A program made the position numbers and the translations under genes. Under the pieces are notes generated by a model, which ran no database searches, was not told the DNA's origin, and was given only the letters and a program-made list of their open reading frames with translations. Below, in pieces: positions 2,711 to 7,440 of a DNA stretch of 7,841 nucleotides. Location of the stretch: the IMG/VR virus record IMGVR_UViG_2534681763_000020; one strand, written 5' to 3'. This stretch comes from a virus. Taxonomy: Duplodnaviria > Heunggongvirae > Uroviricota > Caudoviricetes. Positions within the stretch are counted from its first letter, which is position 1, and the number at the start of each line of letters is the position of its first letter.

Positions 2711-2977
2711 ATGCAAGCTGTTTTTTCTTCCCCGTCTCCCGCCCCTGTGACGCCACTGATGCCGCTGCCGGACATCACGCAGGAGCGTTTTTTACGTCTG
2801 CCGGAAGTGATGCACCTGTGCGGCCTGTCACGCTCGACCATCTATGAACTCATCCGTAAGGGGGAATTTCCGCCGCAGGTGAGTCTTGGCGGTAAAAATG
2901 TGGCCTGGCTGCACTCTGAAGTCACCGCATGGATGGCCGGGCGCATTGCCGGACGCAAACGGGGGTACGACGCATGA
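2711..2977 (+). CDS. vis: Vis, AlpA/Xis-family HTH DNA-binding regulator and excision factor, 88 aa
   Basis: 88-aa ORF with AlpA-like helix-turn-helix core ([48 protein letters not shown]). First gene after the PLL-like promoter. Stop TGA (2975-2977) overlaps the first eta ATG. Confidence 0.85.
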
Positions 2978-3564
2978 TGATGCCTGTTCTGCAAAAAGTC
3001 CCTTTTTCTGGCTTGCCTTTTTCCGGCATTTGCGGATATAGTTTTTCCGCTGTCGCAAAATCGGCAGCCGGGCGTGGAAACCCGAGCAATCTAACGGCGA
3101 CATATGACGCGCCATGCGTCTTTTTTTACGTCGTTGCTTCGGCACACCTGTTTGTGTGGTGTGTGGTCAGTCGAGCAGATGGCACTCCGTGCATCCTGCC
3201 CGCGTCCGCTCATTATGCCGCAGAGTCAATGGTAGCTCAGGCGGGGCAGCCTCCGGGCTGGCCGGTATCCGTTAGAGCCGGTATTTCCACCCCCGTCTGG
3301 GCTATCGCCATCGAGCGTGGAAACTCCGGCGATAGCGTAACCTGCTATCTAACGGAGGCTGCCATCATGGCTACAACCCTTACCCCCTCACACCCTGAAT
3401 TTGTCTTTGTGTTTGCGGCTGTCCGTCGCGCAGATCGTCATCCCCGTATCTGTATGCTTCGCACCGTCGCCGGTGATGAACGCAGCGCCCGCCGTTCCCT
3501 TGTCCGTGACTATGTGCTCTCCCTTGCTGCCCGTCTGCCGGTGGTGGAGGTGTCCCGTGCGTAA
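2974..3564 (+). CDS. eta: Eta: long ORF starting at a triple ATG, reading through the immunity RNA region and ending as kil (nested genes)
   Basis: ATGATGATG at 2974-2982 in the same frame as kil, continuous to the kil stop at 3564 (194-196 aa). From memory, P4 eta starts at one of three adjacent start codons upstream of PLE and contains kil as its C-terminal part. Confidence 0.5.
3013..3050 (+). promoter_or_regulatory. PLE: Candidate sigma70 promoter PLE for the immunity transcript
   Basis: TTGCCT (3013-3018), 18-bp spacer, TATAGT (3037-3042). Lies about 20 nt upstream of seqA and about 400 nt downstream of the PLL site, consistent with the recalled P4 layout. Confidence 0.4.
3072..3098 (+). 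promoter_or_regulatory. seqA: seqA: leader element complementary to seqB of the CI immunity RNA
   Basis: GTGGAAA (3074-3080) and TCTAACGG (3090-3097) are reverse-complementary to TTTCCAC (3284-3290) and CCGTTAGA (3269-3276). GTGGAAA may sit in a small stem-loop, CGGG-loop-CCCG. Confidence 0.55.
3240..3320 (+). ncRNA. cI: CI RNA (P4 immunity factor) containing seqB; boundaries approximate
   Basis: seqB core CCGTTAGAGCCGGTATTTCCACCC (3269-3292) pairs with both seqA and seqC. GC-rich structured region with repeats GCCGGTAT (3261-3268 and 3277-3284). Ends were not determined from sequence. Confidence 0.45.
3313..3358 (+). promoter_or_regulatory. seqC: seqC: second target of seqB, containing the kil Shine-Dalgarno
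   Basis: GTGGAAA (3317-3323) lies in the loop of a 9-bp hairpin, GCTATCGCC (3301-3309) / GGCGATAGC (3328-3336). TCTAACGG (3348-3355) runs into GGAGG (3354-3358), the kil ribosome-binding site. Confidence 0.55.
3367..3564 (+). CDS. kil: Kil, 65-aa cell-killing (Icd-like) protein; first translated gene after the immunity leader
   Basis: 65-aa ORF ([65 protein letters not shown]). GGAGG lies 8 nt upstream of the ATG. Length equals the recalled 65 aa of P4 Kil. Confidence 0.75.
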
Positions 3565-3844
3565 TAAAAAAGCCCCTCAGACCGTCTCAGCGCGTCATGA
3601 CGCCCGTGAACACCTCAGCATTGAGGCTTACCATAAGCTCAACCGCGCCAGCGCCGTATCCCAGTTTGTTGGGGGTGATTTGATTCACCGTGAACTCTCC
3701 GGCCTGCATCAGCTCTACATTCCGCATATTTTCAGCTACCTGAATGAAGATATTGATTTTGTGCTGAATGAACTGAAAGCCAAAGGCCTGTGCCGCGATT
3801 TTCTCGCCCAGCAGAAAGACCGGGGAGACAGGACGCATGTTTGA
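3557..3844 (+). CDS. eps: Epsilon (E protein), candidate anti-repressor that derepresses helper prophage P2; 95 aa from a GTG start
   Basis: GTG at 3557 preceded by GGAGG (3547-3551) and overlapping the kil stop (GTGCGTAA). 95 codons. The 3' end overlaps the orf151 start (ATGTTTGA). Assignment is by position between kil and orf151; start codon is uncertain. Confidence 0.55.
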
Positions 3845-4292
3845 TTTTCCCCAGCCCGGTGAGATTTACCGTTCTGCCGGTTTTCCCGATGTGGCCGTGG
3901 TCGGCATTCTGGAAGACGGTATTCCGTGGGAAATGCCGTACCGCTGCCCGGACATTGTCTGGAACCCGTACCGCCGTAAATTCAGTATCCTTGTGCGTAT
4001 CCTCGCTGACGGGCGCACCACAGACATCCCGCTGGGGCGTTTTCTGCGGGAATTTACCTGTGACCGTCCTGACCTGTTTAAACGCAGCCCCGTAAACCGG
4101 CATGCGGTACTGAAAGAAATGGCCGGAGACCCGGAATTACAGAAATGGCGGGAGAAATATCTGGATATTTACCCGCAGGACCCTGTTCCGGTCAGCCGGG
4201 CGGCACCGGTGGCGCGGGAATGGCGGGAAATTCCCCGCACGGAGCCTGACCCGGAAATCACCCCGGATAACAGTTACCGCAATTATCTGTAA
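3837..4292 (+). CDS. orf151-like protein, function unknown
   Basis: 151-aa ORF translationally coupled to the upstream gene. Matches the size and position of P4 orf151 in the left operon. Confidence 0.8.
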   Translation: MFDFPQPGEIYRSAGFPDVAVVGILEDGIPWEMPYRCPDIVWNPYRRKFSILVRILADGRTTDIPLGRFLREFTCDRPDLFKRSPVNRHAVLKEMAGDPELQKWREKYLDIYPQDPVPVSRAAPVAREWREIPRTEPDPEITPDNSYRNYL

Positions 4293-4365: not shown

Positions 4366-4431
4366 ATGCCTTATCAGTTAATGCAACCGGCACGGAATGC
4401 AGTCATCTGTCACAGGGAGGAAAACAAATGA
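4366..4431 (+). CDS. Candidate 21-codon upstream ORF coupled to cnr
   Basis: AGGAG (4353-4357) sits 8 nt before the ATG at 4366 ([21 protein letters not shown]). Its stop TGA (4429-4431) overlaps the cnr ATG (AAATGA). Follows an 8-bp-stem hairpin at 4321-4346. Confidence 0.25.
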
Positions 4432-4748
4432 AAACACCCTTACCGCCCGTCTTACGCGCTGCCCTTTACCGTCGCGCTGTCGCCTGTGCCTGGCTGACCG
4501 TGTGCGAACGTCAGCACCGCTACCCGCATCTCACCCTTGAGTCACTGGAGGCGGCCATCGCCGCTGAGCTGGAAGGCTTTTATCTGCGCCAGCACGGTGA
4601 GGAAAAAGGGCGTCAGATAGCCTGTGCCCTGCTGGAAGATTTAATGGAATCCGGCCCCCTGAAGGCTGCGCCGTCGCTGTCCTTTCTCGGGCTGGTTGTG
4701 ATGGATGAACTCTGTGCCCGTCACATAAAAGCGCCGGTACTGCACTGA
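4428..4748 (+). CDS. cnr: Cnr-like protein (copy number regulation of the plasmid state, acts on alpha), 106 aa
   Basis: 106-aa ORF immediately upstream of the primase gene, with GGGAGG ribosome-binding site. Assignment by position and size in the P4 left operon. Confidence 0.7.
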
Positions 4749-4762
4749 AGGAGAACAACACC

Positions 4763-7096
4763 ATGAAAATGAACGTAACCGCCACCGTCAGCCATGCGCT
4801 CGGCCACTGGCCGCGTATTCTCCCGGCGCTGGGGATTCAGGTGCTTAAGAACCGTCATCAGCCCTGTCCGGTCTGTGGCGGGAGTGACCGCTTCCGTTTT
4901 GATGACAGGGAGGGGCGCGGCACCTGGTACTGCAATCAGTGTGGTGCCGGTGACGGCCTGAAACTGGTTGAAAAGGTGTTTGGTGTTTCCCCGTCCGACG
5001 CGGCCGCAAAGGTGGCTGCCGTGACCGGCAGCCTGCCCCCGGCTGACCCGGCAGTGACGGCCGCCGCCGGCGCTGAAACAGACGCTGCCCGGAAGAACGC
5101 CGCCGCACTGGCACAAACCCTGATGGCAAAAACCCGTCCCGGAACCGGTAACGCCTACCTGACCCGCAAGGGCTTTCCCGGCCGGGAATGCCGGATGCTG
5201 ACCGGCACACACAGAGCCGGTGGCGTGAGCTGGCGCGCCGGTGACCTTGTGGTGCCACTGTATGACGACAGCGGCGAACTGGTTAACCTTCAGTTAATCA
5301 GTGCTGACGGCCGTAAGCGCACCCTGAAAGGTGGACAGGTCAGGGGCACCTGTCACACCCTTGAAGGACAGAATCAGGCCGGAAAACGTCTGTGGATAGC
5401 GGAGGGATACGCGACCGCACTTACCGTGCATCACCTGACCGGTGAAACGGTGATGGTGGCGCTTTCTTCCGTGAACCTCCTTTCTCTGGCCAGCTTTGCC
5501 CGGCAGAAGCACCCCGCCTGTCAGATTGTCCTTGCCGCTGACCGTGACCTCAGTGGTGACGGCCAGAAAAAAGCCGCCGCAGCCGCAGATGCGTGTGAAG
5601 GTGTTGTTGCCCTGCCGCCGGTCTTCGGTGACTGGAATGATGCCTTCACGCAGTACGGCGGGGAAGCCACCCGTAAGGCCATTTATGATGCCATCCGGCC
5701 ACCGGCTGAAAGCCCGTTCGACACCATGAGCGAAGCGGAGTTTTCCGCCATGAGTACCAGCGAAAAGGCCATGCGTATCTATGAGCATTACGGCGAGGCG
5801 CTCGCGGTCGATGCCAACGGCCAGCTTCTGTCCCGCTATGAAAATGGTGTCTGGAAGGTGCTGCCGCCACAGGACTTTGCCCGGGATGTGGCCGGGCTGT
5901 TTCAGCGTCTGCGCGCGCCGTTCTCCTCCGGGAAGGTGGCCTCCGTGGTGGACACCCTGAAGCTGATTATTCCGCAGCAGGAAGCCCCCTCCCGCCGCCT
6001 GATTGGCTTTCGTAACGGCGTGCTCGACACGCAGAGCGGCACGTTCCACCCGCACAGTCCGTCACACTGGATGCGTACCCTGTGCGATGTGGATTTCACC
6101 CCGCCGGTGGAAGGGGAAACGCTGGAAACCCACGCCCCCGCGTTCTGGCGCTGGCTTGACCGTGCCGCCGGTGGTCGTGCGGAAAAACGCGACGTGATTC
6201 TGGCCGCACTGTTTATGGTGCTGGCAAACCGCTACGACTGGCAGCTCTTTCTGGAGGTGACCGGTCCCGGCGGCAGCGGCAAAAGTATCATGGCCGAAAT
6301 AGCCACCCTGCTGGCCGGGGAGGATAACGCCACGTCGGCCACCATCGAGACGCTGGAATCCCCGCGTGAACGTGCCGCGTTAACTGGCTTCTCACTGATA
6401 CGCCTGCCGGACCAGGAAAAATGGAGCGGCGACGGAGCCGGACTCAAGGCCATCACCGGCGGCGATGCGGTGTCCGTTGACCCGAAATACCGGGATGCAT
6501 ACTCCACGCACATCCCGGCGGTGATTCTGGCCGTGAACAATAACCCGATGCGCTTCACCGACCGCAGCGGCGGCGTGTCACGCCGGCGGGTGATTATTCA
6601 CTTCCCGGAACAGATAGCCCCGCAGGAGCGCGACCCGCAGCTTAAGGACAAAATCACCCGCGAGCTGGCGGTCATCGTGCGTCACCTGATGCAGAAATTC
6701 AGCGACCCGATGCTCGCCCGGTCACTGCTTCAGTCCCAGCAGAACTCAGACGAGGCGCTGAACATCAAACGGGATGCCGACCCGACGTTTGATTTTATCG
6801 GCTATCTGGAAACCCTGCCGCAGACCAGCGGCATGTATATGGGGAACGCCAGTATCATCCCGCGTAATTACCGTAAATACCTCTATCACGCCTATCTGGC
6901 CTACATGGAGGCAAACGGCTACCGGAATGTACTCAGTCTGAAAATGTTCGGACTGGGGCTGCCGGTGATGCTGAAGGAATACGGGCTGAATTACGAGAAG
7001 CGCCATACCAAACAGGGGATACAGACCAACCTGACGCTGAAAGAGGAAAGCTACGGCGACTGGCTGCCAAAATGTGACGACCCAGCAACAGCCTGA
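4763..7096 (+). CDS. alpha: Alpha: multifunctional replication protein (primase, SF3-type helicase, C-terminal origin-binding domain), 777 aa
   Basis: 777 aa, the length of P4 alpha. N-terminal zinc motif CPVCGG...CNQCG. Primase motif EGYATA and acidic ADRD. Walker A GPGGSGKS at 6263-6286 (residue ~501). AGGAG ribosome-binding site. Its recalled binding octamer TGTTCACC is clustered on both sides (ori and crr). Confidence 0.95.
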   Translation: MKMNVTATVSHALGHWPRILPALGIQVLKNRHQPCPVCGGSDRFRFDDREGRGTWYCNQCGAGDGLKLVEKVFGVSPSDAAAKVAAVTGSLPPADPAVTAAAGAETDAARKNAAALAQTLMAKTRPGTGNAYLTRKGFPGRECRMLTGTHRAGGVSWRAGDLVVPLYDDSGELVNLQLISADGRKRTLKGGQVRGTCHTLEGQNQAGKRLWIAEGYATALTVHHLTGETVMVALSSVNLLSLASFARQKHPACQIVLAADRDLSGDGQKKAAAAADACEGVVALPPVFGDWNDAFTQYGGEATRKAIYDAIRPPAESPFDTMSEAEFSAMSTSEKAMRIYEHYGEALAVDANGQLLSRYENGVWKVLPPQDFARDVAGLFQRLRAPFSSGKVASVVDTLKLIIPQQEAPSRRLIGFRNGVLDTQSGTFHPHSPSHWMRTLCDVDFTPPVEGETLETHAPAFWRWLDRAAGGRAEKRDVILAALFMVLANRYDWQLFLEVTGPGGSGKSIMAEIATLLAGEDNATSATIETLESPRERAALTGFSLIRLPDQEKWSGDGAGLKAITGGDAVSVDPKYRDAYSTHIPAVILAVNNNPMRFTDRSGGVSRRRVIIHFPEQIAPQERDPQLKDKITRELAVIVRHLMQKFSDPMLARSLLQSQQNSDEALNIKRDADPTFDFIGYLETLPQTSGMYMGNASIIPRNYRKYLYHAYLAYMEANGYRNVLSLKMFGLGLPVMLKEYGLNYEKRHTKQGIQTNLTLKEESYGDWLPKCDDPATA

Positions 7097-7103
7097 CCCA
7101 CCT

Positions 7104-7128
7104 GACCGGCATCTGCCGGTCTTTTTTT
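7104..7128 (+). terminator. Rho-independent terminator after alpha
   Basis: Stem GACCGGC (7104-7110) / GCCGGTC (7115-7121), loop ATCT, followed by TTTTTTT (7122-7128), 8 nt after the alpha stop codon. Confidence 0.7.
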
Positions 7129-7140
7129 ATCCCTGAATCC

Positions 7141-7440
7141 CCCGAAGGTGAACAATCCAGTGTTCACCCTTCACCGTATATTCACCCGTTATCACACTGA
7201 AATTAAAAGAGAAAAACGAAAGGTGAACAGTGTGAACAATCAAATCAAAAAAAACTTTTTTCTCACTGTGTGATTTCAGTACGGAGGATTAATCACCGGT
7301 ATGAGTCACACCGGCAGAATGCCGGAGGTGAAGAATCGAATGTTCACCCTTCACCCATTATTCACCACCTATCATACTGAAATAAAAGGAGAAAAAAGAA
7401 AGGTGAACAGTGTGAACAGTTCTTTCGAAAAAAAATTTTT
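7141..7440. repeat. crr: crr (cis replication region): two direct repeats of ~120 bp, ~180 bp apart, each carrying type I iterons
   Basis: Unit 1 about 7141-7260, unit 2 about 7321-7440. Each has GGTGAACA/GGTGAAGA, then TGTTCACC, TTCACC-like half sites, an A-rich block (AAAAGAGAAAAA), and GGTGAACAGTGTGAACA. Perfect octamers at 7147, 7161, 7222, 7341 and 7402. Confidence 0.75.

Follow-up and report, generated by a model that had tools for sequence, protein, structure and literature searches.

Which system lies between vis and epsilon in the stretch of viral DNA recorded as IMGVR_UViG_2534681763_000020 in IMG/VR (Caudoviricetes; 7,841 nucleotides, hereafter the window), where one short element is complementary to two flanking elements and one of these reaches the ribosome-binding site of kil? 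A first-pass annotation, made from the letters of the DNA, had read positions 3013-3369 as a cis-encoded RNA immunity module like that of P4, in which the CI RNA, carrying seqB, pairs with the targets seqA and seqC. The present analysis led to the same answer. The window belongs to a P4-like satellite, and the region is very probably its immunity region, a P4-type antisense RNA switch working as in P4. The switch is real; it represents an already known system and an ordinary feature, of which the window holds one natural specificity variant.

The kinship to P4 was close. Over positions 2900-3700, P4 and the window shared 94% nucleotide identity, and no non-P4 record was matched in the phage collection. 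Pairwise alignment of the window with P4 gave 96% identity across about 600 columns, with the mismatches concentrated in seqA, seqB and seqC. The layout of the open reading frames (ORFs) equals that of P4 from psu through alpha. The P4 immunity region has the order PLE, seqA, t1, CI with seqB, seqC and kil, nested in eta; its promoter, CI scaffold, terminator hairpin, kil and the coupling of eta to vis are essentially the same in the window. Judged from the sequence, the window has these marks of a P4-type system: complementarity of seqB to seqA and seqC, a putative PLE and t1 at their places (both as consensus matches), seqC on the kil ribosome-binding site, and kil nested in an eta frame coupled to vis. 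Two papers describe that CI of P4 pairs with seqA and seqC, which causes premature termination, and that isrK and C4 are the counterparts of the seqA and CI RNAs. With these papers, the identity of 94%, the gene order and matches to both Rfam families, C4 and isrK, the P4 reading of the first-pass annotation was well founded. About a fifth of the complete E. coli genomes (1149 of 5426) contained a related region, at 1418 places in all, with a maximum identity of 94.7% over 3040-3370.

Complementarity and covariation of seqA, seqB and seqC

The central element seqB, CCGTTAGAGCCGGTATTTCCAC at 3269-3290, faces two copies of each complementary half-site, namely GTGGAAA at 3074-3080 and 3317-3323, and TCTAACGG at 3090-3097 and 3348-3355. 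All strings quoted in the first-pass annotation were found in the DNA where it had placed them. Neither half-site had any further copy on the two strands of the whole 7841-base window. The combined pattern GTGGAAAN{5,30}TCTAACGG matched exactly three times in the window, at 3074-3097 (+), 3269-3290 (-) and 3317-3355 (+), and in 0 of 200 dinucleotide-preserving shuffles; it is therefore far beyond chance that one central element is complementary to two flanking ones, as had been proposed. The helices that seqB can form span 7 + 8 bp in seqA and 7 + 9 bp in seqC.

Relatives were gathered via the Kil protein, which yielded 85 loci and an anchored alignment of 30 distinct sequences. At least 5 loci were confirmed by the Kil scan of genome contigs, and the diversity came from scans of viral contigs. 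A further 120 stretches (loci L087-L206) were found solely by way of the conserved CI stem, so that the targets were unconstrained, and the combined set held 140 distinct regions. In the anchored alignment, the seqA:seqB and seqB:seqC helices were each 98.2% paired, with double changes in 12 of the 15 pairs (107 and 108 double-change cells, respectively). The covariation score of 0.69, compared with 0.23 for shuffles, was reached by 0 of 500 shuffles, and slid controls for the two helices were 38-52% paired. The extra pair with seqC, U3268-A3356, was invariant in 30 of 30 distinct sequences, and the positions just outside each helix were paired in none of them (0/30). The helix ends are therefore sharp, which defines the lengths given above. 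G·U pairs were tolerated systematically, with a U of seqB opposite an invariant G in 6 of the 30 sequences.

The combined set confirmed this picture. Zero non-pairs among the 15 positions were counted for seqB:seqA in 131 and for seqB:seqC in 130 of the 140 distinct loci. When a foreign seqB was subjected to the same flexible search, zero non-pairs occurred in 0 of 420 trials, the usual values being 3 to 4. The first-pass annotation had stated that it would be refuted if the three elements showed no conservation or covariation among relatives; with 131 and 130 of 140 loci fully paired, the opposite was found.

Some natural loci depart from this rule. In the leaders of L061, L075 and L096, seqA was mismatched to seqB, with seqC still matching. 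At L192:1665-1990, the CI loop allele CCAATAAG matched neither target, and both targets carried CTTCAAGG and thus matched each other; this element could be immunity-defective or recently converted. Since seqA no longer matches seqB in these four loci, their existence suggests that seqA pairing is dispensable. The pattern of L061, L075 and L096 is that expected of a single crossover between seqA and CI, and fits a non-essential role of seqA and t1.

Folds of the RNA elements and the enclosing reading frame

The central part of the region was matched by the Rfam model RF01695, the C4 antisense RNA family to which CI RNA of P4 belongs, with 76.2 bits (E = 4.9e-14; gathering threshold 45) and over model positions 1-87 of 87. 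As expected for a member of this family, the predicted CI fold, with a minimum free energy (MFE) of -48.1 kcal/mol, has a long closing stem around two hairpins. Of the two seqB half-sites, the first occupies the 12-nt loop of a hairpin and the second the unpaired joint that precedes the closing stem. The family structure was 99.7% paired on 78 distinct sequences; its closing stem showed compensatory changes, and the variability within CI was concentrated in the two seqB half-sites.

The closing stem is followed by G-CCA (3307-3310), which resembles the 3' end of a tRNA; many relatives have A-CCC or A-CCA instead. The G-CCA end is consistent with the presumed processing of C4/CI RNAs by RNase P. 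The 3' arm of the closing stem, CUAUCGCC (3302-3309), can pair either with the 5' arm of CI (3231-3238) or with the downstream segment GGCGAUAG (3328-3335), and the latter can alternatively pair with GCUAUC at 3344-3349. Because both pairings of CUAUCGCC show covariation, they suggest mutually exclusive folds of processed and unprocessed transcripts.

Upstream of CI, a consensus scan of 2950-3600 found one promoter-like site (3013-3042) and one terminator-like site (3106-3127). The promoter sequence with its PLE hexamers is identical between the window and P4. Transcription is predicted to start near 3049, which is position 1 of the isrK model: the Rfam family RF01394 (isrK) matched from there to 3126 with 72.5 bits, above its gathering score of 50. 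The helices of this seqA RNA were 99.6% paired across 49 sequences, and the hairpin stem 3069-3072/3081-3084, which presents GTGGAAA, was paired in 100% of them. The copy of TCTAACGG in seqA falls within a stretch that the isrK model leaves unpaired. The t1-like helix directly downstream was 99.3% paired with one compensatory pair; compared with P4, its hairpin differs at one position, T3115 in the window being C in P4 (G·U to G-C).

Two side observations concern this leader. RF03163, described as 'a1, b1 targets of C4 antisense RNA', also matched the seqA region in some relatives (L006:1209-1261, L138:8738-8790); as it overlaps the isrK match there, the two Rfam families describe the same element. 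The spacer 3' of t1 (3128-3175) is of a non-P4 type and resembles the lineage of L043, L044 and L050, with 6-nt and 3-nt deletions relative to P4 at about 3128-3170, and the P4 type resumes beyond it. The leader is therefore mosaic and recombinant.

In seqC, the stems 3313-3315/3324-3326, enclosed by 3302-3309/3328-3335, were 99.1% paired, with double changes in 4 pairs. Together with the fully paired seqA stem, this agrees with the earlier proposal that GTGGAAA sits in a hairpin loop in both targets. Since this half-site occupies target loops and TCTAACGG is unpaired in the isrK model of seqA, each contact of CI with a target would set a loop against a linear segment, arranged reciprocally. 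The first-pass annotation had also noted that the downstream TCTAACGG (3348-3355) runs into the GGAGG of kil (3354-3358), and its end coordinate, 3369, already matched the kil ATG at 3367-3369. The overlap was confirmed: the seqB:seqC pairing at 3348-3356 extends into this Shine-Dalgarno sequence, of which GGAG was invariant in the alignment. A further helix of the MFE structure, 3324-3328/3353-3357, would sequester the same Shine-Dalgarno sequence; it was 83% paired, without double changes and not above shuffles, with some of the noise stemming from misalignment in one allele group. The protein encoded downstream matched NCBIfam NF033153 (phage_ICD_like) with 76 bits, and many of its IMG/VR homologs were 100% identical.

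The whole module is embedded in the reading frame of eta (2974-3564), a feature that is added here to the first-pass annotation. In 61 of 63 distinct relatives, Kosakonia and Mixta loci included, the kil frame continues without a stop for at least 354 nt upstream of the kil ATG, and the translation of 3037-3402 in this frame matched Pfam PF10554 (Phage_ASH) with 103 bits. The stop codon TGA of vis (2975-2977) overlaps ATGATGATG (2974-2982) in the eta frame, forming an ATGA overlap at 2974-2977. In RefSeq, the equivalent coding sequence (CDS) starts at this ATGA overlap, and no RNA features are annotated. For P4, the long ORF is described as eta with PLE as an internal promoter; Kil is its truncated form, translated from read-through PLE transcripts, and full-length Eta is translated only from an upstream late promoter in a manner coupled to the alpA homolog, which prevents termination and overrides the immunity switch (PMC10111431). 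Thus, the open eta frame, the vis overlap, the RefSeq CDS and this description indicate that the module is both RNA-functional and translated, nested in eta and coupled to vis.

For this stretch (window 3037-3402; L207:1135-1734), Phage_ASH models the portion of Eta that overlaps seqA, CI and seqC, and RefSeq, which names the whole ORF 'Icd-like protein' or 'ash family protein', annotates no ncRNA, although the Rfam families C4 and isrK match there. That the ORF over the RNA region is a spurious translation was considered and rejected, on the grounds that 61 of 63 relatives keep the frame open and that the literature names it eta. The positions of all features are compiled in Table 1.

Table 1. 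Genes and RNA elements of the window, in order of position.
Feature	Position	Strand	Remarks
psu	281-853	minus	
delta	927-1427	minus	
sid	1424-2224	minus	
vis/orf88	2711-2977	+	AlpA-family regulator; Pfam Phage_AlpA, 74 bits; position as P4 ORF88
eta	2974-3564	+	long open frame, in the kil frame; encloses PLE, seqA, CI, seqC and kil
PLE-like sigma-70 promoter	3013-3042	+	TTGCCT, 18-nt spacer, TATAGT; consensus match
seqA RNA, isrK-like leader	3049-3126	+	two hairpins, unpaired stretch, terminator; Rfam RF01394 isrK
seqA target	3074-3097	+	half-site 2 GTGGAAA (3074-3080) in hairpin loop; half-site 1 TCTAACGG (3090-3097) unpaired
t1-like intrinsic terminator	3106-3127	+	GACGCG-CCA-TGCGTC, then T7; directly 3' of seqA
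CI RNA gene, C4 family	3225-3312	+	Rfam RF01695; mature RNA predicted at ~3231-3310, tRNA-like G-CCA end
seqB	3269-3290	+	half-site 1 CCGTTAGA (3269-3276) in 12-nt hairpin loop; half-site 2 TTTCCAC (3284-3290) in unpaired joint
seqC target	3317-3356	+	half-site 2 GTGGAAA (3317-3323) in hairpin loop; half-site 1 TCTAACGGA (3348-3356), overlaps kil Shine-Dalgarno
kil Shine-Dalgarno GGAGG	3354-3358	+	8 nt 5' of ATG; read from sequence
kil	3367-3564	+	65-aa Icd-like cell-division inhibitor; first gene translated from PLE transcripts
epsilon	3557-3844		Pfam Derepression
orf151	3837-4292		
orf106	4428-4748		
alpha	4763-7096		777 aa

Proposed mechanism and competing explanations

Observed directly here were the arrangement of the parts, their folds, the covariation of three sites and the open frame of eta; CI processing, CI-dependent termination, the translation block and the override by eta are transferred from work on P4, and the following scheme is to be read in this sense. 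The constitutive promoter PLE (3013-3042) would transcribe a leader with seqA, a weak intrinsic terminator, CI and seqC, followed by kil. From this leader, CI would be cut as a stable RNA of about 80 nt with a fold like a tRNA acceptor arm; presumably, RNase P and PNPase perform this processing, yielding a stable RNA of ~79 nt. Two segments of CI, the hairpin loop CCGUUAGA and the joint UUUCCAC, would stay unpaired, and each may pair with the matching segments in seqA and seqC of newly made leader transcripts. Pairing with seqA is proposed to promote termination at the adjacent t1, by which CI would limit its own synthesis in a feedback loop. Pairing with seqC would cover the kil ribosome-binding site, and transcription would end short of the replication genes (epsilon to alpha). 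The prophage would thereby remain silent, and superinfection by an element of its own type would be blocked. Transcripts from the upstream late promoter (PLL) would escape silencing because ribosomes translating eta pass through the whole module. For P4, the steps of CI processing, termination and eta override were reportedly worked out by Briani et al. in 2000 and Forti et al. in 1999.

Several points weigh against this interpretation. Statements on t1, t4 and timm, on processing by RNase P and PNPase and on φR73 heteroimmunity are taken from secondary sources. The inner hairpins of CI were invariant partly because the retrieval pattern demanded them. No antiterminator that competes with t1, could be displaced by CI and would account for seqA-assisted termination was seen on inspection of the predicted folds. 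When the full RNAs were co-folded (RNAcofold), the loop interactions did not appear; the RNAs kept their own folds, and their ends alone were paired. Finally, if G·U pairs are allowed, the seqB of the window has only 4 non-pairs of 15 with the P4 targets, and a partial cross-reaction with P4 is therefore possible. Duplexfold of full RNAs was confounded by the overlap of the CI 3' end with the target window, and both computations were replaced by duplex energies of excised segments and direct counts of pairs.

Two protein-based explanations of the same region are both highly improbable. According to one, a repressor protein, e.g., the product of the ORF once annotated as cI or Ash, binds the three elements as operators in the DNA; a conserved open frame indeed spans the region and matches Pfam Phage_ASH, and a 137-aa 'cI gene product' is still listed there in GenBank X51522. 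This frame is, however, accounted for by eta. Moreover, the two flanking copies share one orientation and the central copy has the opposite one, and the half-sites are separated by gaps of 7, 9 and 24 nt in the three copies, which therefore fit poorly to one DNA-binding geometry. Conserved and covarying RNA folds leave the half-sites unpaired, the systematic tolerance of G·U pairs (6/30 sequences) does not suit an operator, curated RNA families match, and the factor is an RNA according to the literature. The other explanation ascribes the conservation simply to the Eta protein, the complementarity being a by-product of a repeated peptide motif. It can draw on the frame being open in 61 of 63 relatives, on the Pfam match and on the RefSeq CDS; but the half-sites are the most variable positions and not the most conserved ones, and the three sites change together in a way that preserves base pairing, the inverted central copy included. 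Selection on the protein cannot produce such joint, pairing-preserving change. Coding and RNA function coexist here.

An explanation closer to the P4 scheme is that the short transcript from PLE to t1 (seqA RNA, ~78 nt) is the main active species and acts in trans, where it would sponge up CI or else activate the translation of kil/eta, with CI being one partner of a two-RNA circuit. The isrK match of 72.5 bits with its own terminator and the presence in seqA of the exact sequence recognized by CI speak for this idea. In addition, IsrK of Gifsy-1 is described as acting in trans on a long mRNA, and IsrK-like elements of P4-like prophages of S. Typhi as required in TraDIS. Nevertheless, no trans target was identified in the present analysis, four loci (L061, L075, L096 and L192) carry a seqA unmatched to seqB, and such a role would extend the CI-based switch and not replace it. 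A main function of the seqA RNA in trans is thus considered unlikely, and the P4-type switch with CI acting on seqA and seqC is the explanation followed below.

Specificity alleles and related systems

The recognition sequences of the window are not those of P4. In seqA and seqC, P4 has GTGAGAA and TTCACAGG where the window has GTGGAAA and TCTAACGG, and its seqB reads CCTGTGAA … TTCTCAC compared with CCGTTAGA … TTTCCAC in the window. The differences at all three sites are compensatory. In a combination of the seqB of the window with the P4 targets, 6 of the 15 Watson-Crick pairs are lost. Duplex energies of excised segments were -27.9 and -31.6 kcal/mol for the cognate pairs, compared with -16.0 and -21.8 kcal/mol for the P4 targets, i.e., the cross-duplexes were 10-12 kcal/mol weaker. 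Since the recognition sequences differ at all three sites, the element of the window is predicted to be heteroimmune to P4 and not cross-immune. Heteroimmunity between φR73 and P4 was reportedly found by Sabbattini et al. in 1996 (Virology 216:389), and for this single pair of elements the principle is said to date from then. The likeness of the window to the retronphage φR73, a P4-like satellite, is one of concept, in that CI RNA and its targets reportedly set specificity; φR73 had no matching record in the phage collection.

Perfect pairing to both targets was seen in 126 distinct regions. In these, the loop half fell into 17 classes and the joint half into 8, which occurred in 37 combinations, and a sub-table of the commonest half-site classes had 26 of its 40 cells filled. 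The combination of the window was found in 5 distinct regions. In each specificity class, the match is maintained at all three sites, within a frame that is translated. As a tentative idea, short of an even chance, the two recognition halves may be separately exchangeable specificity modules that form a combinatorial RNA 'immunity barcode' and diversify by reassortment among satellites. Under this idea, the window would be a P4 scaffold with non-P4 alleles in both halves. No survey of modular half-site diversity was found in the literature searched, and this combinatorial variation in the two recognition modules among P4-like satellites is possibly the sole new aspect of the system.

Further loci of the combined set showed other arrangements. 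Two pairs of elements within the same genome were seen, L030/L031 with the same immunity allele and L009/L079 with different ones; these are two pairs only. L096 carries two complete isrK + C4 modules, at 7101-7334 and 9737-9963, which lie 2.6 kb apart on a 14-kb IMG/VR contig. On two contigs of ~86 kb (L088:9718-9805, L186:3895-3982), a C4-family RNA with a matching upstream target was present, but neither an isrK match nor a seqC at the spacing of P4 was found; these loci are probably of a non-satellite type, in which the C4 RNA family has another architecture.

The immI locus of P1/P7 employs an RNA of the same family and clan as CI of the window (C4, with a'/b' pairing to a1/b1 and a2/b2 and with icd-ant under its control; RF01695, RF03163). 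Common to both is the bipartite recognition of one upstream and one downstream site, with the downstream site over the ribosome-binding site of an Icd-like gene. In P1/P7, the antirepressor gene ant follows downstream, whereas the window has the P4 replication genes epsilon, orf151, orf106 and alpha and no ant in this place; likewise, P1 and P7 are P1-like phages, whereas the element of the window is a satellite. The Gifsy-1 locus of Salmonella (IsrK / STnc1160 - orf45 - anrP) is related through the isrK covariance model, which also matches the upstream element of the window. IsrK of Gifsy-1 has been called a structural homolog of the P4 seqA RNA, and a processed downstream RNA complementary to IsrK has been noted; there, in a lambdoid prophage with the antiterminator gene anrP, the short RNA works in trans, switching on translation of the long mRNA and controlling an antiterminator. 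In the window, the surroundings are those of P4, whose seqA RNA has a documented role as a CI target.

Taken as a system, the region adds no new kind: the sequence-only reading had rightly recognized a textbook antisense RNA switch. Its natural three-way compensatory variation provides unusually clean data on the rules of specificity in bipartite loop-to-linear RNA recognition, and these data could guide the design of orthogonal RNA repressors. Although the region occurs in about a fifth of the complete E. coli genomes, RefSeq gives one 'Icd-like' CDS and no RNA features for it. Annotation of CI, seqA and seqC, combined with typing of their alleles, would predict which satellites exclude each other.

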